DNA from: Bacilli bacterium
GTDB lineage: Bacteria; Bacillota_I; Bacilli_A; RF39; UBA660
Length of the DNA: 59,093 nucleotides
Assembly: GCA_017512495.1 (NCBI GenBank)
Contig: JAFWGF010000049.1
Location: 71,267-130,359, forward strand
Reading direction: 5' to 3'
Positions 3,323 to 28,513 of this stretch are shown here, piece after piece (position 1 is the stretch's first letter; each line of letters starts with the position of its first letter). The notes beneath the pieces were generated by a model. The model saw only the letters and a program-made list of their open reading frames with translations. It was not told where the DNA came from and did no database searches. The position numbers and the translations under genes are program-made.

Positions 3323-3423
3323 GTGAATAATTATGTGAAGCAAAATATTGTGAATTAACAAAAAACTTCACATAATGAAATTACTAAATTCTTAAAAAAT
3401 TGTTGTTTACTATATTGAGGTTA

Positions 3424-3452
3424 TTGCAAAAAATTGAAACATCAAGTATACT
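3424..3452 (+). promoter_or_regulatory. sigmaA-type promoter
   Basis: TTGCAA (3424-3429), 17-bp spacer, TATACT (3447-3452), upstream of ATG 3470. Confidence 0.55.
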
Positions 3453-3469
3453 TATAATAGGTGAAGTGT

Positions 3470-5158
3470 ATGAGAATAGATAAACATAATATGAGACTAA
3501 TATTAGTATTGTTAGTATTAGTTATATCAGTTGGTTATGCCATTATACAAAGCGATTTAAATATCAATGGTGTGGCACAAATAAGAGGTGCAAATTGGAA
3601 TATACATTGGGAAAATGTTCAGGTAGCAGAAGGTAGTGTAACAGCGAATACTCCAGTAATAGATACTGCGATGACTACTGTAAGTTATACAGTAACATTA
3701 TCTGAACCCGGAGATTTCTATGAATTTACTGTAGATGCAGCAAATGATGGAACATTAGATGGAATGATAGAATCTATTATATCAAAACTAAATAATACAG
3801 AAATAACCAATATACCGGATTATTTAAATTATAGTGCTACTTATGAAGATGGAACTAATTTAGCAGAAAAACAAATCCTTGCTGCCGGAGATACTGAAAC
3901 GTATAAAATAAGAATAGGATATAGAAGAGATATAACTGCAGAAGAATTACCATCTACTAATCAAACATTAAATCTTACTTTTTCTATAACCTATAGACAA
4001 GCAGATGATACAGCTGTTAGTGTTCCTCACAATAGTTTATATCATATTTTACAGCAAGAAGCAGTATCAGGCGGTTTAGCAAGAGAATATGAAGGGCCTC
4101 ATCAAGACTCGATGGCTGGTAGAGGTTATAATCCAATATATCATTATTACGCAGAAACAGAAGAAGAAGCAACTTCTGTTAAGAATAAGAATAATATAAT
4201 TTTTGGAGGATTTTGTTGGCAAATGTGGAGAACAACTGATACTGGTGGAGTAAAAGTAATTTATAATGGTGTACCATCTGAGGGTAAGTGTAATAACACT
4301 GGAGCAAATACAACAATTGGAAGTAGTGTATTTAATGAAGGGAATACGACAAATCTGTCACAAGGAAAGATGGGATATATGTATAATCCAGATACGTTGG
4401 CTACAATATCAGTCAATGTAACTTCATCGGGTATAAGTAATCACTTGTTTGGAGAAAGCGTAACATATTCAGATGGCTCTTATACTTTAACAAATACACA
4501 AACAGGGTATGATTCTAATCATAAATATGTATGTACAGGTGCCAGTAATAATATTACAACTTGTTCCTCAGTAAGATATTATTTCACACTTAGCGGTAAC
4601 ACTGGTATGGCAATGACACTAAATACTGGAAAAACAATAATAGAAACACTTGAAGATATGTTGAGTGCTGATAATGTGAATCAAACAGATTCGGTTATAA
4701 AGACTATGATTGATACTTGGTACGAAAACAATTTAGAAAGTTATGGTGATAAGTTAGAAGATACAATATTTTGTAATGGAAGAAATTTGAAAAAAACATC
4801 TTTCAATAATGCAGCTAATGGGTTGAGTTGTCCAAATGAAACAGACAAATTTAGCGTAAGCAATCCCAAAGCTCAATTAACATACAAAATTGGGTTAATG
4901 ACTCGTCAGGAAGTAGATTTGTTAAAAACTGATAGTGCAGCAAAATCTGGAGCAGTTTATTGGCTTATTACACCAAGAAATCCGGTAGGTGGTACTAGTG
5001 GATATGTTAGTAATTATTATGTTGCAGCTGGAAGCTTGAATCTAACAGGTGGATCTTATAATACTTCTAGAGGAGTTCGTCCAGCAATTTCATTGAAAAA
5101 TTCAGTTGAGTATACGAGTGGAAATGGTAGTACGGATAGTCCTTATATAGTTGAATAG
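3470..5158 (+). CDS. Secreted TasA/camelysin-like N-terminal domain protein with a DUF6273-like (GVRPAISL...GxGSxxxPY) C-terminal domain
   Basis: Likely start ATG 3470 (AGGTGA RBS). N-terminal ~190 aa aligns with 2133..3293; C-terminus WQMWRTTDTGGVKVIY ... YWLITP ... GVRPAISLKNSVEYTSGNGSTDSPY. Confidence 0.6.
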   Translation: MRIDKHNMRLILVLLVLVISVGYAIIQSDLNINGVAQIRGANWNIHWENVQVAEGSVTANTPVIDTAMTTVSYTVTLSEPGDFYEFTVDAANDGTLDGMIESIISKLNNTEITNIPDYLNYSATYEDGTNLAEKQILAAGDTETYKIRIGYRRDITAEELPSTNQTLNLTFSITYRQADDTAVSVPHNSLYHILQQEAVSGGLAREYEGPHQDSMAGRGYNPIYHYYAETEEEATSVKNKNNIIFGGFCWQMWRTTDTGGVKVIYNGVPSEGKCNNTGANTTIGSSVFNEGNTTNLSQGKMGYMYNPDTLATISVNVTSSGISNHLFGESVTYSDGSYTLTNTQTGYDSNHKYVCTGASNNITTCSSVRYYFTLSGNTGMAMTLNTGKTIIETLEDMLSADNVNQTDSVIKTMIDTWYENNLESYGDKLEDTIFCNGRNLKKTSFNNAANGLSCPNETDKFSVSNPKAQLTYKIGLMTRQEVDLLKTDSAAKSGAVYWLITPRNPVGGTSGYVSNYYVAAGSLNLTGGSYNTSRGVRPAISLKNSVEYTSGNGSTDSPYIVE

Positions 5159-5165
5159 ATGAAAA

Positions 5166-5197
5166 CTTTCAATTGGCTTACAATTGAAAGCTTTTTT
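5166..5197 (+). terminator. Intrinsic terminator
   Basis: CTTTCAATTG-GCTTA-CAATTGAAAG followed by CTTTTTT. Confidence 0.75.
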
Positions 5198-5238
5198 GTG
5201 TCATATTTTGGTATAATATAAATAGTGGAGGTGATACT

Positions 5239-7401
5239 TTGATAGTAGGTGTTTTAGTTGAGATTACTAACCGTAATGTTGATAAGATATTTGACTATAT
5301 TGTACCTAAGAATTTAGAAAATGATATTAAAGTAGGAATCAGAGTATCAGTTCCTTTTGGCAGAATGACTCTTGAAGGTTTTGTTATGGAGATAAAGTCT
5401 TCTAGTGAATTAGATGATTTAAAAGAAATAATAGATATAGTAGATAAAGATGTAGTATTAAATGATGAATTATTAGAATTAGGCAAGATTATTAGAGACA
5501 AGACACTTGCTACTTTAATGAGTTGCTACCAAACTATGTTACCTAAAGCATTAAAGGCTAAAAAGAATAGTACTATTAATATTAGATATGATACTTATTA
5601 TAGTTTGGGTGATGTTACTGGTAAGTTTAATGATAATCAGTTAAAGATAATAGATTTAGTTAAAGAAAAAGGTAAAGTAATAAAAAAAGAACTTGTTGAT
5701 ATATCTCTTAGTAGCTTAAATACTCTTGTTAGAAAAGGAGTACTTGTAGAAGAAAAGGTAGAACATTACCGAGTTGATTATAAAGAAGAAAAAAGAGATA
5801 TTAAGAAGTTAACTCCTGATCAAGAGTCTTGTGTTAATAGTGTTATTAATGGTAGTGATAAAGCTTATTTATTATATGGAGTGACTGGTTCTGGTAAGAC
5901 AGAAGTTTATATGGAAATAATTGATTACTATTTAAGTTTGGGTAAGACTAGTATTGTTTTAGTACCTGAGATTAGTTTAACTCCCCAAATGATTAATCGT
6001 TTTCAAGTACGTTTTGGTAATAAAATAGCCGCTATTCATTCTGCTCTTAGTGATGGAGAAAAGTATGATGAATGGAGAAGAATATATCGTGGAGAAGCAT
6101 CGATTGTTATAGGGGCTAGAAGCGCTATCTTTGCTCCTCTTGATAATCTTGGTGTAATTATAGTTGATGAGGAACATAGTGATTCATATAAACAAAGTGA
6201 TCCTAGTCCTAGATACAGTGCTAAAGAAATAGCTTTAATTAGAGGAGAAACTAACCATGCTCCTGTAGTATTCGGAAGTGCTACTCCATCATTAGAAGCT
6301 ATGGCTAGAGCTAAAAAGGGAGTATTCAAATTACTTGAATTACCAAATAGAATTAATGGTAAAAAATTACCTGAAGTAGAAATAGTAGATATGAATAAGT
6401 CTTTAGGTAAGAGTAGAGGATACTTTTCACCTAGTTTAATTGAATCTATTAGTAATTGTTTAGAAAGAAAAGAACAAGTAATATTACTTCTAAATCGTCG
6501 TGGTTATGCTTCTTTTGTTAGTTGTAAGAACTGTGGTTATACTTTTAAATGTCCTAATTGTGATATTACTCTAACTTATCATAAGAGTAGTAATACACTT
6601 AGATGTCACTATTGTGGATATGGAGGAAAAGTATATAGTAAATGTCCTGAATGTGGAGAAGCTTCTTTAAGTAATTTAGGAGTAGGAACTCAAAAGATAG
6701 AAGAAGAATTAAGTAAGATATTCCCAGATAGTAAAATAGTTAGAATGGACTTTGATACTACTAGTAAGAAAGGTATGCATGAGAAGATAATTGAATCATT
6801 TAAAAATCATGAATATGATATTCTTCTTGGTACTCAAATGGTATCTAAAGGATTAGATTTTGCTGATGTTACTTTAGTAGGAGTAATTAATGCTGATACA
6901 TCGCTTAATATTCCGGATTTTAGAAGTGCTGAGAATACTTTCTCATTACTTGATCAAGTTGCTGGTAGAAGTGGACGTAGTTCTAAAGAAGGCAAAGTAA
7001 TTATACAAACATTTAATCCAGATCATTATGCAATTAACTTAGTTAAAAACCATAATTATTTAGCTTTTTATGAAGAAGAAATGAATATTAGAAGAAAACT
7101 TAAATATCCACCATTCTATTATTTATGTAATATTAGAATTAGTGGTAAAGATACTAATTATTTATTAGTTGAAGCTAATAAAATAAAAAGAAGTTTAGAA
7201 AGAAATTTAACTTCTACAATAATTCTAGGACCTAGTAATGCTAGTATATTTAAGATGAATAATATCTTTAGATATAATATTTTATTAAAATATAAAAGTG
7301 ATGATTATTTAATTCCTTTACTAAATAAAATTCTAGAACATTACAAAACTAATAGTAAAGTAAAGATTGATATTGACTTTAATCCTAGTCAAATACTTTA
7401 A
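5239..7401 (+). CDS. priA: Primosomal protein N' (replication restart helicase)
   Basis: TTG start with GGAGGTG RBS; GVTGSGKT Walker A, DEEH, two CxxC zinc pairs, GTQMVSKGLDF. Confidence 0.97.
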   Translation: MIVGVLVEITNRNVDKIFDYIVPKNLENDIKVGIRVSVPFGRMTLEGFVMEIKSSSELDDLKEIIDIVDKDVVLNDELLELGKIIRDKTLATLMSCYQTMLPKALKAKKNSTINIRYDTYYSLGDVTGKFNDNQLKIIDLVKEKGKVIKKELVDISLSSLNTLVRKGVLVEEKVEHYRVDYKEEKRDIKKLTPDQESCVNSVINGSDKAYLLYGVTGSGKTEVYMEIIDYYLSLGKTSIVLVPEISLTPQMINRFQVRFGNKIAAIHSALSDGEKYDEWRRIYRGEASIVIGARSAIFAPLDNLGVIIVDEEHSDSYKQSDPSPRYSAKEIALIRGETNHAPVVFGSATPSLEAMARAKKGVFKLLELPNRINGKKLPEVEIVDMNKSLGKSRGYFSPSLIESISNCLERKEQVILLLNRRGYASFVSCKNCGYTFKCPNCDITLTYHKSSNTLRCHYCGYGGKVYSKCPECGEASLSNLGVGTQKIEEELSKIFPDSKIVRMDFDTTSKKGMHEKIIESFKNHEYDILLGTQMVSKGLDFADVTLVGVINADTSLNIPDFRSAENTFSLLDQVAGRSGRSSKEGKVIIQTFNPDHYAINLVKNHNYLAFYEEEMNIRRKLKYPPFYYLCNIRISGKDTNYLLVEANKIKRSLERNLTSTIILGPSNASIFKMNNIFRYNILLKYKSDDYLIPLLNKILEHYKTNSKVKIDIDFNPSQIL

Positions 7402-15612: not shown

Positions 15613-16479
15613 GTGAATAACAATGATTTAAATAATACTAATGCTATTCCAGAAATAGGAGAAGAGAAACCAGCTGTAGATAGTTCTATGCTTGTATCTG
15701 ATCCGACAGCTGTAAGTGAAACTCCAACTACGTCAGAAGCTCCTGCAGCACCTATTGCACCAACTGTTCCAACTAGTGAACCAGTTAGCGCTGAACAAAA
15801 CACAAGTTCTGCTCCAGTTACTAATAGAATGGAAGCTCCTGGAGTTATTGGAAATATTGGGCCTAATAAAGAAGATCCAAATGCAATGGTAAATGAAGAT
15901 TTAAATAAAGTGGAAATTAATTATACACCGCCAAGTAAAGGTAAAGTAGTTGCCTTAATACTGTTCTTCTTGTTTTTAATCGCTTTTATAATTTTCTTAC
16001 CACAGATAACTACTATGGTTGATATGTATAAGGCTGGTCAAATTGAACAAGCAAATGAAAAAATAGTAGATGGTAGATTAATTTGTACTTATGATACAAA
16101 TACAACTAATTTAGATAAAGGATATCGTCTAGTCTTTTCGTTTACTGGTAATAAACTAGAAAAATTAGATTATATGGTTACTACTAAAGGAGATCCAACA
16201 TTAGATGCTAGTACAATGGATGATTTAGCAGAGCGTTGTAAGAAATTAAAAGAAACTACTGAAGGTATAAATGGAATAAATGTAAGTTGTGATTATTCTG
16301 AAGGTAAGTTGATTGAAAAACAAGGATTTACTTATGCTGAGATTGATGCTGAACAGCTAGATTCAGCATATTCAGAAGCAGGGGGAACATATCCTCAATA
16401 TACTAATGGTCAAGACATGGACTCAATAGAAACAGGTATGAATGCTTCAGGATATACGTGTAAACGAGAAAGAAATTAA
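15613..16479 (+). CDS. Membrane-anchored hypothetical protein; disordered N-terminus, TM helix, C-terminal DUF1307/YehR-like domain
   Basis: Pro/Ala/Thr-rich N-terminus, TM at aa ~112-132, C-terminal alpha/beta domain ending in GYTC; family call is by resemblance only. Confidence 0.5.
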   Translation: MNNNDLNNTNAIPEIGEEKPAVDSSMLVSDPTAVSETPTTSEAPAAPIAPTVPTSEPVSAEQNTSSAPVTNRMEAPGVIGNIGPNKEDPNAMVNEDLNKVEINYTPPSKGKVVALILFFLFLIAFIIFLPQITTMVDMYKAGQIEQANEKIVDGRLICTYDTNTTNLDKGYRLVFSFTGNKLEKLDYMVTTKGDPTLDASTMDDLAERCKKLKETTEGINGINVSCDYSEGKLIEKQGFTYAEIDAEQLDSAYSEAGGTYPQYTNGQDMDSIETGMNASGYTCKRERN

Positions 16480-16531: not shown

Positions 16532-17173
16532 ATGAAAAAATTTTATATTACAATTAATATATTTTTAGTAATCGCAATTATGACTTCTTTATTTGTACAA
16601 CCAGAACATAATAATATTTCAACAAAGCATCTTTCTAGAAGCCTTGATACAGCAAGTTTTAAAAAACTTAATTTTAGAAAGACTGAACTACCTGAAGTAG
16701 AAGAAAAGAAAGATGGAGAAAAGGAAATAGATAAAGATAAACCAACTAATAACATTACAGAATCTGTTGCTAAAGTAGAAAACACAGTATCAAATAATGT
16801 TGCAGAAGCAAGTGTTGTTACTGATGTGTTAGAAAGACAAGTAGGACCTATGTCTGCCTACGGCCCTGATTGCGTTGGATGTAGTGGTCATTTAGCAACT
16901 GGTTTTGATGCAAGACAAAGTATTGAATATCAAGATCCAACCTACGGTAGTGTTAGAATAGTTGCAGGAGATAGAAAATATCCTTTTGGAACTATAGTTA
17001 GAATAAGTGGAACTAGACTAGGAACATTTAATGCTATAGTTTTAGATCGTGGTGGAAATATTGGTATTGGAAAAAGGTTTATGTTTGATTTACTTTGCCA
17101 TAATGAAAGCGAAGCTTCAGGGGTAGGAAGTTTTCAAAATGTAACATTTGAAATACTAAGATATGGTTACTAA
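16532..17173 (+). CDS. 3D-domain (MltA-like) cell-wall protein with N-terminal anchor
   Basis: IVAGDRKYPFGT, VLDRGGNI and FDLL give the three conserved Asp of the 3D domain. Confidence 0.8.
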   Translation: MKKFYITINIFLVIAIMTSLFVQPEHNNISTKHLSRSLDTASFKKLNFRKTELPEVEEKKDGEKEIDKDKPTNNITESVAKVENTVSNNVAEASVVTDVLERQVGPMSAYGPDCVGCSGHLATGFDARQSIEYQDPTYGSVRIVAGDRKYPFGTIVRISGTRLGTFNAIVLDRGGNIGIGKRFMFDLLCHNESEASGVGSFQNVTFEILRYGY

Positions 17174-17182
17174 TTTAATGAT

Positions 17183-17215
17183 AAAAAGTAGTGAGAAATA
17201 GCACTACTTTTTTTT
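17183..17215 (+). terminator. Intrinsic terminator
   Basis: AAAAAGTAGTG-AGAAATAG-CACTACTTTTT followed by a T run. Confidence 0.8.
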
Positions 17216-17294
17216 GATTTTTTAAGCATATGCAATTGTAATGAAATACTTTCCGTGATATAATAATTGTTATAATAGGATGTATGGTGATAAT

Positions 17295-20200
17295 ATGAAG
17301 AATAAAAGAAAAGGAAATAAAGGTTTTACATTAATTGAGCTTTTAGCATCAATAGTATTACTAGGAATATTATTTGTTTTTGCCATTCCAACAATAGTTG
17401 GTGTAGTAGAAAGGAATAGAGATAAGATTTATGTAAGTGATGTTAGAAAATTAATGTCACAGGCAGAACATAAGTTGAAGGCATCTAGTACTATTATGGA
17501 AAAACCAGAACCGGGAGATTGTATTGTCATCAGTTTAGTTTATTTGGATAGTGAAGACTTTGACCAAGCTCCAAATGATGGAGAATACATTAAAGAAGCT
17601 TCATTTGTTGTTGTAAAAAATAATGGGGGAAAATTAGAGTACTCAGGAGCTATTGTAGAAAAAACAAAAGCCGGAGGATATAGAGGTATTGAATTAACAA
17701 AGGAAGATTTACTAAAGCAATCAAATGCTGTTAGATTTGTTAAAAATATTTCAGAAAACAATATAATAAAAGTTAACGATCCGCATGTTATAATGTCAAA
17801 TTATATTAATTCAACATTAAAAGAACAAAATGATGGTGTAGACTATGTTAAAACTGTTAGTAATATTTATAACCAGCCAAGTTTAGAGGACCAATCATCA
17901 TCTGGAGAAACACTTCCTCCAGTTATCACTAAAGCAACCTTAACATCAACTTCTGGTAAAAATTATAACTCACTAGATGCTACACTTAACTTAACTGTTA
18001 CTGATAGAGATAATCCAACAAATCAACTTTTAGTAGGTCTTTCAACATCTAGTTATACTGATGCATTGAATGGTGAAAAACTACCATATGGTGAAGAAAA
18101 CACTTTTACTAAAACTTATGAGTTCGATAAAATGGGTTATGGCTATTTAGGTAATAATCAAGTTAATTTATATATTGTAGTAATTGATCCTGAAAAAAAT
18201 AGAGTTCAAACAAACATTAGTTATAAATTGCATAAAAATGAACCTCCTGTAATTGGAGAAGGATCTAAATTAGTAAGAAGAGCAGAAGATCCAGTAAATA
18301 AAGGGACAGCTATACTAAAATTGGATTTATCAGATGATATTGATTCAACTAATGCTTTAAAAGTATGCTATACAGCAAATACTAATGCAAATAGTTGTAA
18401 TAATTATGTATCTTACAGAGACATGGTGCGTGATGATGTTTATATCGAATTTGATACAGCACAATGTAATTTAACCGGTCAAGAATATAAATTGAAAGTC
18501 TTTGTAGCAGATAGTAGTAATGAGATAAGTTCAAAGGTATTAACATATAAAGTTCATAATGATGGTAATCCTTCTTTTGATCCAAATAAAAAACAAGTTG
18601 ATGTTGTTACTGCAGAAACTGGATATAACAGTTTAAATGTTAAAGTGTTTGTAAATGGATCTGATGATGTTACTCCTAATTCTAATTTAAGAGTTAGAAT
18701 AGTTGAAGGTAATACTGATCAAATATATCGATATGATGCAAATGGAATACCGTTTAGATTAAGTGGTCATTATGATGGTCAAAAGAGAACATTAAAAGTT
18801 ACTTTAATTGATGAATGTAATCATTATTCAAATACTGTAACTTATTCAGACTATACTGTTTATAAAAATATTCCACCACAAATAGACAGTATATCTATTA
18901 TGAGTAATGGATATGCTTGTAATAATAGTGATGAATGTCCTATCGTAAATAATAATGGAACTGTTACAAGTGGTGGAAATGCTAAAGCAAGTGTTTATAT
19001 TAATATTTTAGACGATTTAGATAGTGATGATTTATATAATAATATAAAAGTTTGTATTTCAGAAAATAGAGCAAACTGTAATAATGAAGCTAATTTCAAG
19101 CCTTATTCGGAATATGCTACAGGTACTATCTTTACTTTTGATGCGGGCAATGCTACTCCATATAATGGTAGTACTAAAACACTCTATGTTGTTTCAAAGG
19201 ACTCTGAAGGTGCCATTAGCGAAAGTTCAAAAAGATATACACTCTATAAGAATAAAGCTCCAGAAATTACTGGATTTGATGTTCACTCTGAAGATAGGCC
19301 ATTTGTTAGTACCGATAATAATAGTTTGAATCTTACTTTCTTCCTTCAAGCAGATGATGACATTTTAGATTTAAATGATTTACAATATACAATCCAAACT
19401 CAAGGAAGTAGCGAAGTAGTAGAAAAGAAAAGTCTTGCTGAATATGATGAAACTAAAGGATTAAAATATCATGTAGCAGGTACATATGATGGTGGAGAAA
19501 GAACTATTGTCTTAAAAGTTTATGATAATTATTCAGCAGGTTCTGAGCCATCTACTCAAAAATACAAAGTTTATAAAAATAAACCACCAGAGATTTCTTT
19601 GTTAAAGACAGAAATAGATGAACAAACTGGTGAAGAAGTTCAAGTAAGTGTTGAAAATGAAATAGATATAGTCCAAAGTTCTGAATGTTTATCAAGTTAT
19701 AAGTGTCCTTATTTAGCTGAAGATGCTAATGGTAAAGGACAAAAAGTCAGTGTAATATTTGAAGCTACTGATGACATTGATGGAGTAGCAGGTATAGAAG
19801 AAGATGATGGATTAGAACAAGGAGAAATGACAGTATGTGTATCTGAAACTGAAGCAGATTGTACTGCTGCAAATTCTACACATTATGTGCCTTATAAACA
19901 ATTTGTTGAAGAAGAAAGAGAATATATATTTAATAAAGGTATGACTAATCCATATAAGTCTCAATATAAAAATAAAACATTATATGTTTATTTAAGAGAT
20001 TCAGGAGGTTTAACTACACATGTTAGTAAACCATATACGCTATATACAGCAAGTGCTCCTAAATTCATAGATGAGGAAGTTGACGCAGTAACTCAGCACG
20101 TAACAAAATATCCAAATATTACTCCAGTTGGAATAGACCAAGTAGATGAGTCTTCGGGAATTGTTGTTAATGGTAGAACTGCATTATACAATATGCTAGT

Positions 20201-21476
20201 TGTAGATGATTTTGAAGATTCTATAAATTTAGAAACTAGTATTTGTTATAAAAAAGTCGATAGTGAAGATGAATGTAGTTGGAGTGCGTATAAACCATAT
20301 GAAGATACTGTTGAAATAAATTTTGATGATACCAACAGTTACAACGGTGAAGAATATGAAATATATGCTAGGGTTAGAAATTCTTTAGGCATAGTTGCTA
20401 CAACATCTACACCATTGAAATATAAGGTTTATAAAGATGACAAACCAAGAATCTTATCTATAGCAGCCAGTTATGAAAATGCAACTCATGTAGATACAGA
20501 TCCACCAGCTTCTAATAATGGATCTTTATTGGGATCATGGGAAACATATAATAGTGATACCATGTTTAGAATTAGTATTATAGCTGAAGACTTCTTTGAT
20601 TCATATAAGGTATGTGTTAGTAAAGATCCTAACGGAGCAGATTGTACAGATGATAAATATCTAGGAAAACAGGATGGAACTCTTTATAGTGGAACAGATG
20701 TTGATTCAATACTATTCTATTATAATGAACCAGATGGACTAAAGTCTCATACCGATGCAGAGATAGGTTTTGAGGTACTAGTAGATGATTATTATTTATT
20801 TGTAAAAGATTCTCATGGTAATGTTGCAAAATCTAGTGCTTTTTATGCTTCAGAATTCAATGAGTGTGATGAAAAAAGGCCAAAACCTTCAGTAACAACA
20901 TATGAGCATTCAAGTGGTTCAACAATTAGTACAGCAGCTTGTCGTGGACAATGCTACTATTCAGAAACTGCAACAGATACTAGTGAATGTAAAATGCCTG
21001 GTGAATCAACTCCAGAAGGTGAAGAAGAAAAAGAAGAATGTGATTTATCAGAATTTATTGAAAAAACATCAGAAATAGTAGGAAACTATAAAAAGAAACT
21101 TACATATAATGATAGTTTTACCAATGCAGTGTGTACTCCTCCAACAGAAGAAGATTATACAGCAAATTGTTCATTTAAACAGTGTTTTTATAATAAGAGT
21201 ACTCAACCATATAATGTTAAAGCCATTGGTTTAAGGAAAAAAACATTCCCTAGAGGTGCTTCTGAAATGGTTAACGTTATAGTAAGCGGAGAAACTATAT
21301 CAATAAATAGTTATGAATACTATACTGTTTATACAGTTACTTATGATGGTGTCTCTGAATCAGTAGATTTACATCCAACACCTGAATATGTTTTCCCAGA
21401 AGAATATAATTTAAATCCAGATAAATACAAATATAAATCAAGTGATGATGTTCCATACATCAGAGTAATGGATTAA
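17295..21476 (+). CDS. Giant type IV prepilin-like protein (1393 aa) with about 8 Ig/cadherin-like repeats and Cys-rich C-terminus
   Basis: Likely start ATG 17295; class III signal KG|FTLIE with hydrophobic helix; recurring Y[KT][LV][YH]KNxxP linkers and DDxD motifs. Confidence 0.8.
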   Translation: MKNKRKGNKGFTLIELLASIVLLGILFVFAIPTIVGVVERNRDKIYVSDVRKLMSQAEHKLKASSTIMEKPEPGDCIVISLVYLDSEDFDQAPNDGEYIKEASFVVVKNNGGKLEYSGAIVEKTKAGGYRGIELTKEDLLKQSNAVRFVKNISENNIIKVNDPHVIMSNYINSTLKEQNDGVDYVKTVSNIYNQPSLEDQSSSGETLPPVITKATLTSTSGKNYNSLDATLNLTVTDRDNPTNQLLVGLSTSSYTDALNGEKLPYGEENTFTKTYEFDKMGYGYLGNNQVNLYIVVIDPEKNRVQTNISYKLHKNEPPVIGEGSKLVRRAEDPVNKGTAILKLDLSDDIDSTNALKVCYTANTNANSCNNYVSYRDMVRDDVYIEFDTAQCNLTGQEYKLKVFVADSSNEISSKVLTYKVHNDGNPSFDPNKKQVDVVTAETGYNSLNVKVFVNGSDDVTPNSNLRVRIVEGNTDQIYRYDANGIPFRLSGHYDGQKRTLKVTLIDECNHYSNTVTYSDYTVYKNIPPQIDSISIMSNGYACNNSDECPIVNNNGTVTSGGNAKASVYINILDDLDSDDLYNNIKVCISENRANCNNEANFKPYSEYATGTIFTFDAGNATPYNGSTKTLYVVSKDSEGAISESSKRYTLYKNKAPEITGFDVHSEDRPFVSTDNNSLNLTFFLQADDDILDLNDLQYTIQTQGSSEVVEKKSLAEYDETKGLKYHVAGTYDGGERTIVLKVYDNYSAGSEPSTQKYKVYKNKPPEISLLKTEIDEQTGEEVQVSVENEIDIVQSSECLSSYKCPYLAEDANGKGQKVSVIFEATDDIDGVAGIEEDDGLEQGEMTVCVSETEADCTAANSTHYVPYKQFVEEEREYIFNKGMTNPYKSQYKNKTLYVYLRDSGGLTTHVSKPYTLYTASAPKFIDEEVDAVTQHVTKYPNITPVGIDQVDESSGIVVNGRTALYNMLVVDDFEDSINLETSICYKKVDSEDECSWSAYKPYEDTVEINFDDTNSYNGEEYEIYARVRNSLGIVATTSTPLKYKVYKDDKPRILSIAASYENATHVDTDPPASNNGSLLGSWETYNSDTMFRISIIAEDFFDSYKVCVSKDPNGADCTDDKYLGKQDGTLYSGTDVDSILFYYNEPDGLKSHTDAEIGFEVLVDDYYLFVKDSHGNVAKSSAFYASEFNECDEKRPKPSVTTYEHSSGSTISTAACRGQCYYSETATDTSECKMPGESTPEGEEEKEECDLSEFIEKTSEIVGNYKKKLTYNDSFTNAVCTPPTEEDYTANCSFKQCFYNKSTQPYNVKAIGLRKKTFPRGASEMVNVIVSGETISINSYEYYTVYTVTYDGVSESVDLHPTPEYVFPEEYNLNPDKYKYKSSDDVPYIRVMD

Positions 21477-21489
21477 AGTTGGTGAGATA

Positions 21490-21984
21490 ATGAAAAAGAA
21501 GATTTTAGATTTTATAAAGAAAAATATTAAATTAATAATAATTGCTTTAATATTTATTTTGGGTATTGTGATAATAGTATCTGTTATAAGTATTAAATCT
21601 GATAAAGAAAAAGGATATAAGGAAGAAAATAAATATAGAATATCAGATGAGGTTGTAGAAGTTCCCGGAACTAAAATAATAACAAGCGATAGAATAAAAG
21701 AAAGACATTGCTTAAATGATATATGTGTTACTAATATGACTTTTTATACATATGGAAAAGATGGAAGAATCGAATGCACAGTTAAGAACGAAAGTGAAGA
21801 AGAAAAAAGTGGTTATATAAAGATAAAAGTTAACGGAATTAGTTTAATAGCTAATTATGATAATTTAGCTCCGGGAAAGGAATCTAAAACAGTTGCTAGA
21901 TACACAGGTGTGGAATTTACTGATATCGAAGACTACACTTTAGAAGAATTAACAAAAAAAGAAAAGAAAAACATTAGAGGATAG
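21490..21984 (+). CDS. Membrane-anchored small beta-sandwich-like protein in the pilin operon
   Basis: N-terminal TM helix; C-terminal domain CLNDIC...IEC; lies between giant pilins 1 and 2. Confidence 0.7.
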   Translation: MKKKILDFIKKNIKLIIIALIFILGIVIIVSVISIKSDKEKGYKEENKYRISDEVVEVPGTKIITSDRIKERHCLNDICVTNMTFYTYGKDGRIECTVKNESEEEKSGYIKIKVNGISLIANYDNLAPGKESKTVARYTGVEFTDIEDYTLEELTKKEKKNIRG

Positions 21985-21994
21985 GAGGTAAAGT

Positions 21995-24900
21995 ATGAAT
22001 AAAAAAGGATTCACAATGGTAGAACTTCTAGGAGCTATAGTAATATTAGGAATATTAAGTGTAATAGCAATCACAGGAGTAAGTAATTTAATACAAAAGT
22101 CAAAAGATACAGATGAAGAACAATATGAGAAGACATTAAAACAAGCAGCGCAAAGTTATATGCAGTCAAATAGAAATAAATTACCAAAAGCAATAGGAGA
22201 AAAAAGAAAGGTAACCGCAGCTGAATTAAAGGGAAATAATTACCTAAAAGAGGGAGATAAAGGCTGTGTAGAAATATATAAAAAAGATAAGAATAAATAT
22301 GTATATACAGTAAATATGGAATGTGAAGAAACTCATATTCAAGAAATATGTGAAAATTCAGGATTAGTCTTAGAGAAATTCTACTTTACAGATCATACAT
22401 TAAGTGAATTAGAAAGAGTAGATTTAGATAACTTAGAAGAAGCAAGGATGGTTATCTACTTTAAAGGTGGAACAAAAGCCGGAGAAGAATTAGCAATAGA
22501 AAGTTATTCATATTCAATATCAGTACAGACAAAGAATGATCCAAACTTACATGAAGTATATAATTCAGGATCATTAAATGGAAATGGAAATAAAGAGATA
22601 AAAATCATAAAACAAATAAGTGAATATGTACATTTATCAGGAGCAACAAATGTAGTAGTAACACTAAAAGCAAAGAATACAGAAGGATGTTCATTAAAAG
22701 AAAGTAGATCAACCAGTTATGAAGATGATGTCAAACCAATATGTACATTTATAAAAAATCAAGCAACATCAGGAAATGATTGGATAAATAAAAAAGATGG
22801 AGGAGCAACAAGAACAATAACAGCAACATGTGATGATGGATTAGGAAGTGGATGCGTAAGTCAAAATGTTTCAAGGACATGGGAAAATGATTATCAACAT
22901 GATGCAGAGTGGGCATATATTCAAGTAAAAGATAATGCAGGAAATACAAATATAGATGATGAATTTATAAAGGCAAGCCCAACAATATGTGACAAACCAA
23001 TCCAAGCAGATAATACATGTCGAGTAAGAGTAAATGTAGATAAGACACTACCAACAATAAAGGTAGTAGGAGCATATGAGAGAGCAGATGGAGCAACTGC
23101 AGCAATAAAGCAAAATGCTCCAAATATATTAAATATTAATGGATCAGGAACAATAACAATAGATAATAACAGTAATGGTGGGCAAGGAACAGGAAGCATA
23201 GCAGTAGGACAATATAAGAATTTAATAAATGACTGGATGAACTTAGTAAATTATCCATATGGAATAGCATATCAAGTAGAGATATCAGATACATTACATT
23301 TAGCAGGGTGGTCATGGAAGACAAATCAAGCAGGATTAGGACATAGAGATTCAGGATATGGAACATTAGGAAATAATGAAAGTCCAAATGGAGGAAGCTT
23401 TGCTGATCTAACAGACAATGATTGTGGAAAAAGAGATGTAGCAACAATAGTAATAGGATTCCAAAAAGAAGGAAAGAGAAAAGGAGAGTTAAAGGTATGG
23501 GATAAAGCAAACAATATAACTACCTTAACAATCTATGCAAACTTAGATAGAACTCCACCAGAAAAGCCAACAGTAACATACAAAAAGGCAAAATCAAATG
23601 CAAAATATACAGCGGGAACTGCAGTAACAAATTGGTCAACAGAATTAATAAATTCATATGTTACAGCAAAAGTAGAACCAGATATATCAGGATGGGATAG
23701 ATTCGAATATTGGTATAGAAAGCAAAATGCAGTAAATAATACCGAAGCAACAACAGCAGGAAGTTTAGCAGCAGCAATAACAGGCCAAACAAAAATGAAT
23801 AATTATCCAGATAAAATAGAAAATTTAGCTGGATATCAAATAAAAGATGAAGGAAGACACTTGTTCAAATATAATAGTTGTGATAGAGCAAGTAACTGTT
23901 CTGATTATAGTAATGAAGATACAATAAAGATAGATACAAAACCACCTGCATGTAGTAACCAAATCAGTTATCCTCACGGAAAACCAACAGATTATGGATG
24001 GTTAGGAAGACATTATGTTGCGAATGCTACGTACTATACAGAAACTAACGAAGCAAGAGGACAATATAAAGGTCACTATGTAGAAGCTGAGAATAATAGA
24101 GAAACGGCAATAGTAAAACAAGTTTGTACAGAAAATGGAACATATGGAAGTCAGTGTGATCCGGAATCAATATCTCAATTTGAATATAAGGTTCCAATTA
24201 ATACTACGGCAGCAGGAGCAGAAGGAGACGGAAAAGGAGGAACAATAAAAGATAAAGCAGGAAATGAAACAGCGTGTACACCAGATCAAACTGTAAAAAT
24301 AGACTATGCCCTTCCAAAGTGTATTGTAGAAAATGAAGCAGAATATAAAAATGACAAATGGAATTGGGCAAGAAGTAGGACAATTTATCGTAAATGTAAT
24401 GACGTTAAAAGAGATGATCATCCAAACGATACAATAAGCGGATGTCTGCCAGATCTTACTAAGGAGAGAAGTTTTGGTGGAAAAAAATCTGATGTAAACT
24501 TAAATGATAAATTAATGACAACATATACATATCAATCAGGTTATAAAATAACAGATAAAGCAGGAAACAAAAGATTCTGTTTTCCACCAACTGTAAAAGT
24601 ATATGTAGATAGAAGTGCACCAAATTGTAGTTATGACAAATCACATACATATACTACATCAGGAGTAACTATAAAATATTCATGCAATGATAAATATGGA
24701 AGTACAGCTGGTGTAGGAGTTAATACATGCCCAGGTGGAAGAGACCACACAGTAACAGAAAAGAAGAAAACTCAGACACCAAGTATGGATGATAAACTAG
24801 AAAATGATGCGACATGTACTGTTCCAGTACATAGTCAAAAACAATATAAGAAGAAAACATGTAATCAATATAAGAAATGTAAAAATTCTGCTTGTGGAAC

Positions 24901-25192
24901 AACAACAATATATGCATGTGTATGTAAAGGAACTGGTTGTGGTATGTGCCCTAGTGGTTATACTCATTATTCAAGTGTACCTTCTGGATGTGGAACATAT
25001 GGTTGGAGTGGTGGTATGAGTGGAACTAATGCTCATGCTCACAAAGCATGCTCTATTACTAATAGTTGTAGAACAGCAGCTTGTGGTTGTAATAGTTGGA
25101 GTGGATACTCTGGATGGTCAACAGGTAACCATTGTCCAGGATATAGTAATTCAAACTCTTGTAAACAGAAGAGTAGAACAGTTTATTACTAG
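21995..25192 (+). CDS. Giant type IV prepilin-like adhesin A (1065 aa)
   Basis: KKG|FTMVE class III signal; Ig-like repeats with DKAGN/VD-x-T-x-P motifs; 14 Cys in the last ~110 aa. Confidence 0.8.
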   Translation: MNKKGFTMVELLGAIVILGILSVIAITGVSNLIQKSKDTDEEQYEKTLKQAAQSYMQSNRNKLPKAIGEKRKVTAAELKGNNYLKEGDKGCVEIYKKDKNKYVYTVNMECEETHIQEICENSGLVLEKFYFTDHTLSELERVDLDNLEEARMVIYFKGGTKAGEELAIESYSYSISVQTKNDPNLHEVYNSGSLNGNGNKEIKIIKQISEYVHLSGATNVVVTLKAKNTEGCSLKESRSTSYEDDVKPICTFIKNQATSGNDWINKKDGGATRTITATCDDGLGSGCVSQNVSRTWENDYQHDAEWAYIQVKDNAGNTNIDDEFIKASPTICDKPIQADNTCRVRVNVDKTLPTIKVVGAYERADGATAAIKQNAPNILNINGSGTITIDNNSNGGQGTGSIAVGQYKNLINDWMNLVNYPYGIAYQVEISDTLHLAGWSWKTNQAGLGHRDSGYGTLGNNESPNGGSFADLTDNDCGKRDVATIVIGFQKEGKRKGELKVWDKANNITTLTIYANLDRTPPEKPTVTYKKAKSNAKYTAGTAVTNWSTELINSYVTAKVEPDISGWDRFEYWYRKQNAVNNTEATTAGSLAAAITGQTKMNNYPDKIENLAGYQIKDEGRHLFKYNSCDRASNCSDYSNEDTIKIDTKPPACSNQISYPHGKPTDYGWLGRHYVANATYYTETNEARGQYKGHYVEAENNRETAIVKQVCTENGTYGSQCDPESISQFEYKVPINTTAAGAEGDGKGGTIKDKAGNETACTPDQTVKIDYALPKCIVENEAEYKNDKWNWARSRTIYRKCNDVKRDDHPNDTISGCLPDLTKERSFGGKKSDVNLNDKLMTTYTYQSGYKITDKAGNKRFCFPPTVKVYVDRSAPNCSYDKSHTYTTSGVTIKYSCNDKYGSTAGVGVNTCPGGRDHTVTEKKKTQTPSMDDKLENDATCTVPVHSQKQYKKKTCNQYKKCKNSACGTTTIYACVCKGTGCGMCPSGYTHYSSVPSGCGTYGWSGGMSGTNAHAHKACSITNSCRTAACGCNSWSGYSGWSTGNHCPGYSNSNSCKQKSRTVYY

Positions 25193-25225
25193 TGAATGAA
25201 AACGTTGTAAATACTGGATATACTG

Positions 25226-25258
25226 AAAAAAACTTAGTTGTTTTAACTAAGTTTTTTT
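25226..25258 (+). terminator. Intrinsic terminator between adhesins A and B
   Basis: AAAAAAACTTAGTT-GTTTT-AACTAAGTTTTTTT, a perfect 14-bp stem. Confidence 0.85.
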
Positions 25259-25328
25259 ATTGTTAAAGAAGTAAAATAATGATATAATCAGTCTATAATA
25301 GGTATAGTGTCTTATACGGAGGTAAAGT

Positions 25329-28300
25329 ATGAATAAAAAAGGATTTACAATATTAGAACTTCTAGGAGCTATAGTAATATTAGGCATATTAAGTGTAATG
25401 GCAATTGTAGGAGTAAGTAATTTAATACAAAAGTCAAAAATGACAGATGAAGAACAATACGAAAAGACATTAAAACAAGCAGCGCAAAGTTATATGCAGT
25501 CAAATAAAAATAGATTACCAAAAGCCATAGGGGAACAAAGAATGGTAACCGCAACTGAACTGAAAGAAAATAATTATCTAAAAGAAGGAGATAAGGGTTG
25601 TGTAGAAGTATATAAAAAAGATAAGAATAAATATGTATATACAGTAAATATGGAGTGTCAAGAAAAATATATTGAAGAAATATGTAAAAATGTAGGTCCA
25701 AAGATAGAAAAAATGTACTTTACAGATCATACATTAAGTGAATTAGAAACAGTAGATTTAGATAACTTAGAAGAAGCAAGAATGTATATTTACTTTAAAG
25801 GTGGAACAAAAGCCGGAAAAGAATTAGGAATAGAAAGTTACTCATATTCAATATCAGTACAGACAAAGAATGATCCAAACTTACATGAAGTATATAATTC
25901 AGGATCATTAAATGGAAATGGAAATAAAGAGATAAAAATCATAAGAAAGATAAGTGAATATGTACATTTATCAGGGGCAACAAATGTAGTAGTAACACTA
26001 AAAGTCAAGAATACAGAAGGATGTCCATTAAAAAAGAGTATATCAACAAAATATGAAGATGATGTCAAACCAATATGTACATTTATAAAAAATCAAGCAA
26101 CATCAGGAAATGATTGGATAAATAAAAAAGACGGAGGAGCAACAAGAACAATAACAGCGACATGTGATGATGGATTAGGAAGTGGATGTGTAAGTCCAAC
26201 GTTCTCAAGGACATGGGAAAATGATTATCAACATGATGCAGAATGGGCATATATTCAAGTAAAAGATAATGCTGGAAATACAAATATAGATGATGAATTT
26301 ATAAAAGCAACACCAACACTATGTGGTAATTCAGCTCAAGTAGATAATTCATGTCGAGTAAGAGTAAATGTAGATAAGACATTACCGACAATAAAGGTAG
26401 TAGGAGCATATGAGAGAGCAAATGGAATAACAGCAACAATCAAGAAAGGTGCTCCAAATATATTAAATATAAATGGATCAGGAACAATAACAATAGATAA
26501 TAATAGTAATGGTGGACACGGAACTGGAAGCATAGCAGTAGGACAATATAAAAACCTAATAAATGACTGGATGAACTTAAAGAACTATGAATATGGAGTA
26601 GCGTATCAAGTAGAGATATCAGATACATTACATTTAGCAGGATGGTCATGGAAGACAAATCCTGGAGGAGTAAGTCATAGAGATACAGAATATGGAACAT
26701 TAGGAAATAATGAAAGTCCAAGCGGTAAAAATTATGAAGACATCCAAAATAATGATTGTGGAAAATTAAATGACACGATAATAATAGGTTTTAGTCAAGA
26801 AGGAAGAAGAAAAGGAGAGTTAAAGGTTTGGGACAAAGCAAACAATGTAACAACTTTAACAATCTATGCAAACTTAGATAGAACAGCACCAGAAAAACCG
26901 ACAGTAACATATAAAAAGGCAAAATCAAATGCTAATTATACGGCTGGTACTGCAAGAGCAAATTGGTCAACAGAGTTAATAAATTCATATGTTACAGCAA
27001 AAGTAGAACCAGATATATCAGGATGGGATAGATTCGAATATTGGTATAGAAAGCAAAATGCAGTAAATAATACTGAAGCAACAACAGCAGGAAGTTTAGC
27101 AGCAGCAATAACAGGTCAAACGAAAATGAATAATTATCCAGATAAAATAGAAAATTTAGCTGGATATCAAATAAAAGATCAAGGAAGACACTTGTTCAAA
27201 TATAATAGTTGTGATAGAGCAAGTAACTGTTCTGATTATAGTAATGAAGACACAATAAAGATAGATACAAAGCCACCAATTTGTAGTAACGAAATCAGTT
27301 ATCCAAATGGAAATCCAACAAGCTATGGATGGTTAGGAAAGCATTATGCGAACAGTACGACATATACTTCAAGTGGAAAAAATACAGCAATAGTAAAGCA
27401 AGTTTGTACAGAGGATGGAACATATGGAAGTCAATGTGATTTAGACACAATATCCCAATTTGAATATAACGTACCAATTAATACTACAGCAGCAGGAGCA
27501 GAAGGAGATGGAAAGGGAGGAACAATAGCAGACAAAGCAGGAAACGTAAAAAGTTGTACTCCTGACCAAACAGTAAGAATAGATTATCAAGAGCCAAAAT
27601 GTGTAGAAACTAATCAAGCGGAACAAAAAAGTAATGGTGACTGGATTTGGACTCGAAGTAGAACAATTTATCGAAAATGTGAAGATTATAAAGAAAAAAC
27701 TACAGACATGATAAGTGGCTGTGTACCAAAAACGGAATCTATATCTTTCGGTGGAAAAAACGCAGATGTTAATTTAAATGATAAGTTAAAAACTAATCAT
27801 ACTTTCCCAGGATTTGGAATTCAAGATAAAGCCGGAAATAGAAAACTATGTGGTGACAAGGTAGTACATGTTTATGTAGACAGAAGTGCACCAAATTGTG
27901 ATTATAAAAAGACTAATAAATATTCAAAAGAGGGAGTAACAATAGAGTATACATGTGATGATTTATATAAAGGTACTGAAGGTACAGGAGTTAAAACGTG
28001 TCCAGGAGGAAGTGACCATATTGTTACAAAAAGAACTACAACTCAGACACCAAGTATGGATGATAAACTAGAAAATGATGCAACATGTACTGTTCCAGTA
28101 TATAGTCAAAAACAATATAAGAAAAAGACAAGAACATGGAATAGCTGCAAGTATAAAAAAACAGAGTACTATGATTGTATATGGAGAGGTGGAAATAATC
28201 CATCTAATGCTACAGTTTCTACTTGTGTAGGACATGGTTCTTGTACATCAAGTAAAAGAGGAACAGTTTGTGGATCACCAAATGCTACATATGGTTGGAC

Positions 28301-28445
28301 CTGCGTATGTAGTTCTAGAAAAGTGTGTGTAGGTGATTGGAATGATTGGAGTGGCTGGTCATCAAGCTGGTCAACAGATAATCACTGTCCAAACTATAAG
28401 GATTCAAATTCTTGTGATCAAAAGAGTAGAATAGTTTATTATTAG
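25329..28445 (+). CDS. Giant type IV prepilin-like adhesin B (1038 aa), paralog of A
   Basis: KKG|FTILE class III signal; near-identical to A over ~650 aa; different 10-Cys tip; own extended -10 (TGATATAAT, ~25280). Confidence 0.8.
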   Translation: MNKKGFTILELLGAIVILGILSVMAIVGVSNLIQKSKMTDEEQYEKTLKQAAQSYMQSNKNRLPKAIGEQRMVTATELKENNYLKEGDKGCVEVYKKDKNKYVYTVNMECQEKYIEEICKNVGPKIEKMYFTDHTLSELETVDLDNLEEARMYIYFKGGTKAGKELGIESYSYSISVQTKNDPNLHEVYNSGSLNGNGNKEIKIIRKISEYVHLSGATNVVVTLKVKNTEGCPLKKSISTKYEDDVKPICTFIKNQATSGNDWINKKDGGATRTITATCDDGLGSGCVSPTFSRTWENDYQHDAEWAYIQVKDNAGNTNIDDEFIKATPTLCGNSAQVDNSCRVRVNVDKTLPTIKVVGAYERANGITATIKKGAPNILNINGSGTITIDNNSNGGHGTGSIAVGQYKNLINDWMNLKNYEYGVAYQVEISDTLHLAGWSWKTNPGGVSHRDTEYGTLGNNESPSGKNYEDIQNNDCGKLNDTIIIGFSQEGRRKGELKVWDKANNVTTLTIYANLDRTAPEKPTVTYKKAKSNANYTAGTARANWSTELINSYVTAKVEPDISGWDRFEYWYRKQNAVNNTEATTAGSLAAAITGQTKMNNYPDKIENLAGYQIKDQGRHLFKYNSCDRASNCSDYSNEDTIKIDTKPPICSNEISYPNGNPTSYGWLGKHYANSTTYTSSGKNTAIVKQVCTEDGTYGSQCDLDTISQFEYNVPINTTAAGAEGDGKGGTIADKAGNVKSCTPDQTVRIDYQEPKCVETNQAEQKSNGDWIWTRSRTIYRKCEDYKEKTTDMISGCVPKTESISFGGKNADVNLNDKLKTNHTFPGFGIQDKAGNRKLCGDKVVHVYVDRSAPNCDYKKTNKYSKEGVTIEYTCDDLYKGTEGTGVKTCPGGSDHIVTKRTTTQTPSMDDKLENDATCTVPVYSQKQYKKKTRTWNSCKYKKTEYYDCIWRGGNNPSNATVSTCVGHGSCTSSKRGTVCGSPNATYGWTCVCSSRKVCVGDWNDWSGWSSSWSTDNHCPNYKDSNSCDQKSRIVYY

Positions 28446-28448
28446 AAC

Positions 28449-28474
28449 AAAGGATACATTGAATGTATCCTTTT
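28449..28474 (+). terminator. Intrinsic terminator
   Basis: AAAGGATACA-TTGAA-TGTATCCTTT followed by T. Confidence 0.8.
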
Positions 28475-28513
28475 GATTTGATATAATATATTTGCATGAT
28501 GGAGGAATATTTT

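Follow-up and report, generated by a model that had tools for sequence, protein, structure and literature searches.

How much extra protein can a type IV pilin carry, and what might such a subunit be for? The question is raised by a locus in a stretch of 59,093 nucleotides from a Bacilli bacterium (GTDB lineage Bacteria; Bacillota_I; Bacilli_A; RF39; UBA660; assembly GCA_017512495.1, contig JAFWGF010000049.1, positions 71,267 to 130,359 of the forward strand), which we call the window and whose G+C content is 28%. The common view is that a minor pilin of type IV pili bears no more than one or two extra domains. An earlier note, made from the letters of the window alone, had described three large prepilin-type genes within 11 kb, with a small membrane protein inside their operon, and had proposed an undescribed pilus-tip adhesin system. 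We find the three genes in place, all with intact reading frames and with products of 1393, 1065 and 1038 aa as described, and the small protein between the first and the second of them. Taken together, our analysis suggests that the three large proteins are probably giant modular type IV pilins that are displayed on a pilus and act in adhesion. The locus consists of four co-directional open reading frames (ORFs), p1 to p4:

17295..21476 (17280 as an alternative start), + strand: p1, giant modular type IV pilin of 1393 aa (leader 10 aa, mature protein 1383 aa)
21490..21984, + strand: p2, bitopic membrane protein of 164 aa
21995..25192, + strand: p3, giant modular type IV pilin of 1065 aa (leader 5 aa)
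25329..28445, + strand: p4, 1038 aa, tandem paralogue of p3 with a protein identity of 75%

Prepilin signals and pilin heads

Performing profile searches, we find that p1, p3 and p4 exceed the cut-offs of both PF07963 N_methyl (28.1, 26.1 and 24.2 bits, respectively; cut-off 21.2) and TIGR02532 (26.5, 23.1 and 19.8 bits; cut-off 16.3), in agreement with the class III prepilin signals that the earlier note had read by eye. Beyond these two families, no Pfam or NCBIfam family matched p1, p3 or p4 above its cut-off. The leaders are basic and end in Gly, and Phe+1 and Glu+5 follow (MKNKRKGNKG↓FTLIE in p1, MNKKG↓FT(M/I)(V/L)E in p3 and p4; the arrow marks the predicted cleavage site), so that the proteins carry the features by which type IV pilins and class III signals are recognized. 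In the numbering of the mature proteins, Glu5 and Gly14 are present in all three, and Pro22 in p1 too. Across the whole assembly (1.37 Mb, 51 contigs, 86% complete), the strict class III motif has 8 matches, plus 3 looser ones, among 2366 ORFs. Being so rare genome-wide, three such signals in 11 kb are not a matter of chance.

We then considered how far the resemblance to pilins extends into the proteins. Two segments of the window are concerned:

17325..17879, + strand: p1 pilin module, residues 11-195, with F1, E5, G14 and P22 in mature numbering
21995..22330, + strand: p3 leader and small pilin module, residues 1-112

The head of p1 (residues 13-160, 148 residues) is 38% identical, with an E-value of 2e-23, to a standalone pilin of 193 aa encoded on contig C39 of the same genome. 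In 30 other genomes of the order, the best p1 match was a pilin of 170-210 aa, with 31-50% identity over the head. An alignment of 40 sequences of the p1 family shows no variation at G(-1), F1, T2, L3, E5 and P22 or at many Cys positions, and almost none at G14. In both families, conservation is highest in the head, with an identity of 54-63% in the p1 family and 47-56% in the p3 family, where C110 is invariant. Profile searches of the PDB gave a similar picture: the α1N part of the p1 profile matched solved pilin structures and nothing else, and the p3-family profile matched only the full α1 of solved pilins (Geopilin, 3.6e-11; Streptococcus sanguinis PilE1, 7e-9). Beyond α1N, p1 shows no relatedness to p3 and p4.

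The AlphaFold2 (AF2) model of p3, based on 33 homologues, has a mean predicted local distance difference test (pLDDT) score of 80.1. Its N-terminal part consists of a helix (residues 8-58) and three strands (70-74, 91-96 and 102-107), with a pLDDT of only 47-60 over the first 40 residues. The earlier note had made its proposal depend on an N-terminus that models as a pilin α1, and the 50-residue helix with its small sheet in p3 is such an N-terminus. Thus, the long α1 helix and the β-sheet head are seen in the model for p3; for p1, whose model starts at residue 200, they follow from the 38% identity to the 193-aa pilin. E5, G14 and P22 are important for the way in which pilins pack in a filament. 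Since these residues are kept, and since the whole head rather than the helix alone is conserved and homologous to a standalone pilin, the heads look suited to a filament lattice and not merely to a membrane anchor.

Stalks, distal ends and the partner protein p2

Behind the heads, the three proteins are made up of the following parts, the domain limits in p1 and p3 being approximate (from secondary structure, dips in pLDDT and motifs):

17919..20816, + strand: p1 stalk, eight homologous β-sandwich domains like those of immunoglobulins (Ig) and cadherins, residues ~209-1174
20823..21473, + strand: p1 C-terminal domain, candidate tip, residues 1177-1393 (~215 aa), β-rich, with 8 Cys
22367..24862, + strand: p3 stalk, about seven β-sandwich domains, residues 125-956, with D-x-[TS]-x-P motifs between them and a pLDDT of mostly 80-95
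24863..25114, + strand: p3 hypervariable Cys-rich segment, residues 957-1040, with 12 Cys and a pLDDT below 50
28134..28367, + strand: p4 hypervariable Cys-rich segment, residues ~936-1013

The AF2 model of p1 (residues 200-1393; mean pLDDT 83.7) is all-β. A Ser/Pro-rich linker (residues ~196-210) follows the head, and the ends of the stalk domains are marked by the motif Y-x-[LV]-Y-K-N-x-x-P-x-I. Self-comparison of p1 by BLAST at default settings detected no internal repeats; a segment-wise sensitive BLAST established the homology of the domains, with E-values of 3e-16 for R4-R6 and 5e-12 for R3-R5. The eight domains fall into two subtypes, A (R1, R3 and R5) and B (R2, R4 and R6-R8), the latter with a Cys pair. 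Foldseek matched the model to strings of Ig, fibronectin type III and cadherin domains (GhpA neck, contactin, protocadherins, Sap S-layer). In the p3 model, the pilin module is followed by a short helix, the roughly seven β-sandwich domains, the unmodelled Cys-rich stretch and a final strand, and a Foldseek search of the PDB returned strings of Ig-like domains only (GhpA neck, MpIBP, α2-macroglobulins, S-layers). The two AF2 models and Foldseek therefore agree with each other on the pilin head, Ig-like stalk and Cys-rich end of the original description. An N-terminal pilin module with 7-8 β-sandwich domains and a tip behind it is also what the definition of a modular pilin asks for (Raynaud et al. 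2021).

The distal ends of p1 and of p3/p4 differ in character. In p1, the C-terminal domain is modelled confidently (pLDDT ~80-93) and has no Pfam match even at E<=10. A search of 1.84 billion representative proteins gave just 16 matches at E<=1e-3, nearly all of them at the C-terminus of proteins of 1000-1720 aa; judged by its sequence, it is an orphan domain specific to the p1 family. In p3, the last strand (residues 1056-1064) is conserved and confidently modelled, and the Cys-rich stretch before it is the least conserved part of the family, with about 10% identity. The identity between p3 and p4 is correspondingly uneven: 97-100% at residues 561-640, 55-68% at 761-920, 20-30% at 960-1040 and 74% in the last 27 residues. 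The distal segment is thus the fastest-changing part of p3 and p4, as expected of a surface that faces a ligand or a host. Synonymous differences between the two genes also vary several-fold along their length, which points to a mosaic history. The last 119-125 residues of p3 and p4 have no Pfam match even at E<=10. For this reason, a thrombospondin type 1 (TSP1) repeat (PF00090/PF19028) was rejected as an explanation of these tails, in which a Trp-rich frame is still visible by eye.

The small protein p2 has one N-terminal transmembrane helix (residues ~13-35) and an outside domain of about 125 aa, and matches no Pfam or NCBIfam family. A p2 homologue stands directly after the p1-family gene in all five loci that we inspected, across p1 identities from ~30% to 100%, which makes p1-p2 a conserved two-gene module. 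Residues P59, T61, H73, C74, C79 and G92 of p2 are invariant. Most likely, p2 would hold, chaperone or dock p1 in the membrane before assembly.

In distant relatives (L109:7485-21003 and L110:7847-19013; L numbers denote loci of other assemblies, C numbers contigs of this one), the p1-p2 pair comes directly after genes for a family 4 glycosyltransferase (GT4), an Alg14-like and an Alg13-like protein, and is followed by two genes with a NAGPA (phosphodiester glycosidase) domain. Such a neighbourhood may indicate a link to pilin glycosylation or to wall-glycan synthesis. Along with a p3-family gene that stands beside a family 2 glycosyltransferase (GT2) and a Wzy gene in a related locus, it could be taken to mean that the giants are no adhesins at all but pilin-anchored structural or enzymatic proteins of the envelope, for instance a spacer or coat tied to wall-glycan synthesis. 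We consider this highly improbable: the family scans detected no catalytic domain in p1, p3 or p4, their architecture is that of fibrous adhesins, and p3 and p4 are hypervariable at their distal ends.

Assembly machinery, pilin repertoire and proposed place in the filament

Do these cells have the means to process and assemble such subunits? The earlier note had placed the machinery outside the window and had tied its proposal to the presence of type IV pilus or competence (Com) genes somewhere in the genome. We found no T2SSE, T2SSF or Peptidase_A24 match on the contig of the window, and one set on contigs C12 and C47: a single prepilin peptidase (Peptidase_A24; C12:3437-4204), an adjoining PilC/GspF-type platform of 492 aa with two T2SSF domains (C12:4219-5697, -) and a single PilB/GspE-type ATPase (C47:11431-13449, -; T2SSE 385.8 bits). 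All three score below the equivalog cut-offs, and the GspE/PilB scores exceed those of ComGA/ComGB; the ATPase, for example, reaches 452 bits with GspE, 436 bits with PilB and 265 with ComGA. Of 201 sampled genomes of the order (0.6-1.6 Mb in size), 199 encode a prepilin peptidase. With the peptidase nearly universal, a type IV filament belongs to the core equipment of this lineage of reduced genomes.

Three other kinds of system were considered and rejected. A competence pilus is disfavoured by ComGA (265 against a cut-off of 300), by ComGB (152 against 240) and by the pilins (13-33 bits, where the ComG pilin models require 49-80). The pilins are no type II secretion pseudopilins either (TIGR01710, 19.6-22.9 bits against a cut-off of 88.85); moreover, the host is monoderm, as judged from the six sortases encoded in its genome. 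Lastly, the C-termini (...PYIRVMD in p1, ...KSRTVYY in p3 and ...KSRIVYY in p4) have neither the LPXTG motif nor the hydrophobic tail of a sortase-anchored adhesin. Given six sortases, pilin-based display is not a substitute for a missing sortase pathway.

Both the ATPase and the platform bear unusual low-complexity appendages, the former a tail of ~260 C-terminal residues rich in Gln, Thr, Pro and Val, and the latter an N-terminal extension (~90 residues) in which Gln, Asn and Ala are abundant. T2SSE also matches a 475-aa ATPase on C19, behind which come two TadB/TadC-like genes (judged by eye; the one that was scanned gave no Pfam hit). Upstream of it lie a sortase and a Cys-rich secreted protein of 999 aa (C19:7156-15462, +). 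The C19 locus looks like a separate system and may encode a Tad-type or a sortase pilus.

At least eight pilin-like genes are found in the genome besides p1, p3 and p4. Small pilins of 146, 193 and 220 aa are among them, the first encoded on C21 and the last two on C39, and two small pilin-like genes, for products of 257 and 222 aa, stand in divergent orientation beside the ATPase gene on C47. A p3 paralogue of 722 aa, with 41% identity over the first 318 residues, lies 3.4 kb from the pilC-pilD pair (C12:3437-11256, -), with queA, tgt and the gene of a 244-aa exported protein in between; the genes for the type IV filament are dispersed among housekeeping genes in this genome. Two further pilins carry modules that can be named. 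A 720-aa pilin on C26 (4934-7096, -; N_methyl 29.8 bits) combines Ig repeats of the p1 type with three or four TSP1 repeats (PF19028, 72.7 bits; PF00090, 54.8 bits). The TSP1 domain is best known from animal proteins, and its fusion to a pilin is unusual. Our full-text literature search returned no description of a pilin-thrombospondin fusion. On C14 (9888-11783, +), a pilin-like protein of 631 aa with the leader ...NNKG↓FAIST lacks Glu5; it matches the ALK/LTK glycine-rich domain with 65.2 bits and a ricin-type lectin with 24.5 bits, just under the cut-off of 25.6. Together, the six pilin-headed proteins longer than 600 aa comprise 5569 residues, which corresponds to 1.2% of the assembly.

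From these elements, a path to the cell surface can be proposed. Each prepilin would be inserted into the membrane via its hydrophobic α1N, and the single prepilin peptidase would cut it after the leader Gly. The single ATPase and platform would then build the pilin module into a type IV filament, with small pilins, for instance those of 193 and 220 aa, forming the shaft. Type IV filaments grow from the base, and the subunits that enter first would come to lie at the distal end. On account of this mode of growth and of the PilABC model of S. sanguinis, where two modular pilins cap the filament, the giants would sit at the tip. Here, the 7-8 Ig-like domains would form a thin stalk of ~25-40 nm (an estimate that assumes ~4 nm per Ig-like domain) and hold the C-terminal domain off the cell as a ligand-binding tip. 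We infer the adhesive role from the fibrous Ig stalks, from the hypervariability of p3 and p4 in their distal segment and from the binding modules on the sister pilins.

Several observations weigh against pilus display and adhesion. None of the giant genes lies within a pilus operon, either here or in four related loci. No ligand-binding domain could be recognized in p1, p3 or p4 by the family scans, including those of the tails against Pfam at E<=10. In other systems, the absence of Glu5 is a hallmark of the top-most tip subunit (PMC9934059); p1, p3 and p4 have kept it, so that none of them is marked as an obligatory top subunit. In addition, at least six modular pilin-like proteins would compete for few tip positions. 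The machinery also falls short of a classical type IVa machine, as we detected no PilM or PilN (PF11104, PF05137) and no PilT-type ATPase in the 86% complete assembly.

An alternative which has some of these observations on its side, and which we consider unlikely but worth keeping in mind, is that the giants are stalk adhesins that remain anchored in the membrane without polymerising. The class III signal would then serve for export, cleavage and anchoring through α1N, and the 25-40-nm stalk would by itself cross the wall and present the tip outside, in a manner resembling the class-III-signal sugar-binding proteins of the archaeal bindosome. This would suit genes that stand among housekeeping or glycosyltransferase genes outside pil operons, a minimal assembly machine in which no retraction ATPase was detected, and the conserved membrane partner p2; going by the models, the stalk would in principle be long enough for a Gram-positive wall. 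However, conservation extends beyond the hydrophobic helix to the entire globular head, which shares homology with a standalone pilin. E5, G14 and P22 are dispensable for an anchor, yet they are invariant or almost invariant, and six sortases are already there for wall anchoring.

The p1 head is of the major-pilin type, and its close kinship to the standalone pilin of the lineage raises another possibility, namely that p1 is a shaft subunit, which would co-polymerise with the 193-aa pilin or replace it and give bottle-brush fibres with lateral Ig stalks. Apart from this kinship and from the kept E5, G14 and P22, the Ser/Pro-rich linker behind the p1 head (residues ~196-210) speaks for it, as a position in the filament body is allowed if the linker is flexible (PMC8179133). 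Nevertheless, appendages of 1200 residues on many subunits would crowd each other sterically, and each would have to cross the wall. No precedent is known, and the same evidence fits a tip subunit that touches the major pilin directly. We regard a shaft made of p1 as very unlikely.

The two positions can also be combined. In that case, the type IV filament would be a general display scaffold, with p1 placed along the shaft with the help of p2 (a bottle-brush with 40-nm lateral stalks), and with interchangeable giants at its tips (p3 with its two paralogues, p4 and the 722-aa protein, and the pilins with TSP1 repeats and with a lectin domain) that attach the cell to host or partner cells. We give this speculative picture a rather small chance. 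Display of p1, p3 and p4 on the pilus as adhesive modular pilins is the explanation that we prefer.

Gene arrangement, relatives and known modular pilins

How are the giant genes expressed and inherited? Scanning the intergenic regions of the locus, we noted the following sites, the promoter-like ones being consensus matches only and no evidence of function:

17183..17222, + strand: intrinsic terminator of the 213-aa gene upstream, with a stem of 11 bp and a T-run behind it, fold energy -11.0 kcal/mol
17236..17264, + strand: promoter-like site TTGTAA-17-TG-TATAAT before p1, 10/12 positions matching, extended -10
25226..25258, + strand: A+T-rich hairpin and T-run after p3, possible terminator or attenuator, fold energy -11.7 kcal/mol
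25260..25288, + strand: p4-specific promoter-like site TTGTTA-17-TG-TATAAT, from the consensus scan
28449..28479, + strand: terminator-like hairpin after p4, ahead of the tex promoter, fold energy -11.1 kcal/mol
28459-28487, + strand: promoter-like site of tex, from the consensus scan

For p1, the start at 17295 is preferred because a GGTGA ribosome-binding site precedes this ATG and because close homologues are 1393 aa long. p3 and p4 have a ribosome-binding site in common (GGAGGTAAAGT-ATG). The predicted terminator at 17183-17222 marks the 5′ boundary of the putative pilin transcription unit. The gaps between p1 and p2 (13 bp) and between p2 and p3 (10 bp) are short. The hairpin at 25226-25258 was found by reading the sequence; a terminator scan based on G+C gave no flag there. 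These features suggest a single operon for p1, p2 and p3 and a promoter of its own for the copy p4.

Just before the pilin operon stand two genes whose position is conserved in a relative. One encodes a 213-aa exported protein (window positions 16532-17173, +) with a weak match to a 3D (MltA-like) domain (E 0.06), and the other a 288-aa membrane protein (15613-16479, +) with a near-threshold match to DUF1307. The 3D-domain protein could act in local wall remodelling, and the terminator of its own would separate its gene from the pilin unit. As for codon use in this genome, CGG is hardly used at all and makes up 14 of the 282,260 codons in ORFs of >=300 aa (0.05 per thousand), and AGA 22.9 per thousand. 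No special reading of CGG is needed for the giant genes to be intact.

The syntenic locus of a relative (L006) reads prkC-rsgA-rpe-294aa-214aa-p1-p2-p3-tex. Having a single p3-like gene in this position, it indicates that p4 is a recent, lineage-specific tandem duplicate. In the assembly of a near-identical strain, we noticed an apparent chimeric third copy, the first 241 aa of which agree with p4 at all 33 diagnostic sites and the rest with p3. The first 2,267 nt of the contig of that strain (L108:1-5601) are, however, 100% identical to its positions 3335-5601, and a triplication by unequal crossover is inseparable from an assembly loop. The chimera was therefore not used as evidence of gene conversion.

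Relatives of the p1 and p3 families are unnamed metagenomic proteins of 620-1822 aa, with one exception that is called 'type II secretion system protein [Bacilli bacterium]'. A search with the generic N-terminal motif KGFTLIE returned mostly unrelated pilins, and the nearest records were metagenome-assembled genomes of 'uncultured Bacilli' from the gut. Among the 201 genomes of the order, p1-type heads occur on ORFs of more than 900 aa in 6, and p3-family proteins in 10 (5 of 98 genera), so that the giants are limited to about 3-5% of the order. A congener encodes one p1-like protein and three p3-like proteins of ~1570-1660 aa.

To what extent are such proteins new? Their nearest counterparts in design are PilB and PilC of S. 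sanguinis, adhesive modular pilins with a von Willebrand factor A module and a lectin module, respectively, which have been modelled at the pilus tip (PMC8179133, PMC9934059). As in the present case, the host is monoderm and has several modular pilins in its genome, a class III signal and a small pilin module precede C-terminal non-pilin modules, and display at the tip and adhesion are predicted. But PilB and PilC are of ~50-55 kDa, have one or two recognizable extra domains and are encoded inside the pil locus. In contrast, p1, p3 and p4 have 1038-1393 aa (with relatives of up to 1822) and 7-8 Ig-like domains plus a tip; they match no Pfam domain besides N_methyl, their genes lie outside pil loci, and p1 has a small membrane partner. 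CofB of the CFA/III pilus of enterotoxigenic Escherichia coli and the proteins of the TcpB type also join a pilin module through a linker to β-rich extra domains, and they initiate assembly and sit at the tip (PMC8179133). CofB, however, has only two extra domains, forms a trimer and belongs to a diderm type IVb system with its gene within the pilus operon. Profile searches of the PDB with the p1 and p3 families gave no sequence similarity to CofB.

With respect to size, a survey of 2021 listed more than 1,200 modular pilins in 264 architectures and noted that pilins whose modules have no signature would escape it (PMC8179133). An 860-residue pilin of Candidatus Falkowbacteria with 12 IPR013211 repeats was called 'the most extreme case' (PMC8179133). 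It is likewise a multi-repeat protein; p1, p3 and p4 are 20-60% longer, and their domains have no database signature, which makes them invisible to surveys of the InterPro type. The present families are 1.2-2 times larger than that extreme case.

Other large surface proteins share part of the plan. MpIBP (4p99/5irb), the neck of GhpA (9flp) and sortase-anchored adhesins of Gram-positive bacteria present a distal binding region on the same kind of beads-on-a-string β-sandwich stalk, as found with Foldseek, but they are anchored by type I secretion plugs, outer-membrane parts or LPXTG and sortase, and p1, p3 and p4 by the pilin head only. PilY1/PilC of diderm type IVa systems follows the same logic, with a very large effector at the pilus tip. 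It has no class III signal and is not a pilin, docks on minor pilins by a β-propeller and is absent from monoderms (PMC9934059).

In light of these comparisons, the proposal of an undescribed pilus-tip adhesin system has to be narrowed. What is new is the family and its scale, that is, signature-less Ig-like domains, several copies per small genome, genes outside pil loci and the pairing of p1 with p2; the kind of system is known, since the design has already been described as 'modular pilins' (PMC8179133). The adhesion and the tip location that were part of the proposal we retain as conjectures, at the strength given above.

The proteins of this locus show that a fibrous stalk of more than 1,000 residues can be attached to a pilin module. 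They raise the mechanistic question of how so large a subunit is extracted from the membrane, passes a Gram-positive wall and fits into a filament, for which the conserved p1-p2 pair and the orphan tip domain provide defined experimental handles. Annotation is also affected, as such proteins currently go unnamed or are mislabelled 'type II secretion system protein'. As to the biology of such uncultured gut Bacilli with small genomes, the use of about 1.2% of the assembled DNA for six pilin-headed surface proteins suggests that a central element of their lifestyle is to attach to the host, to mucus or to partner microbes.

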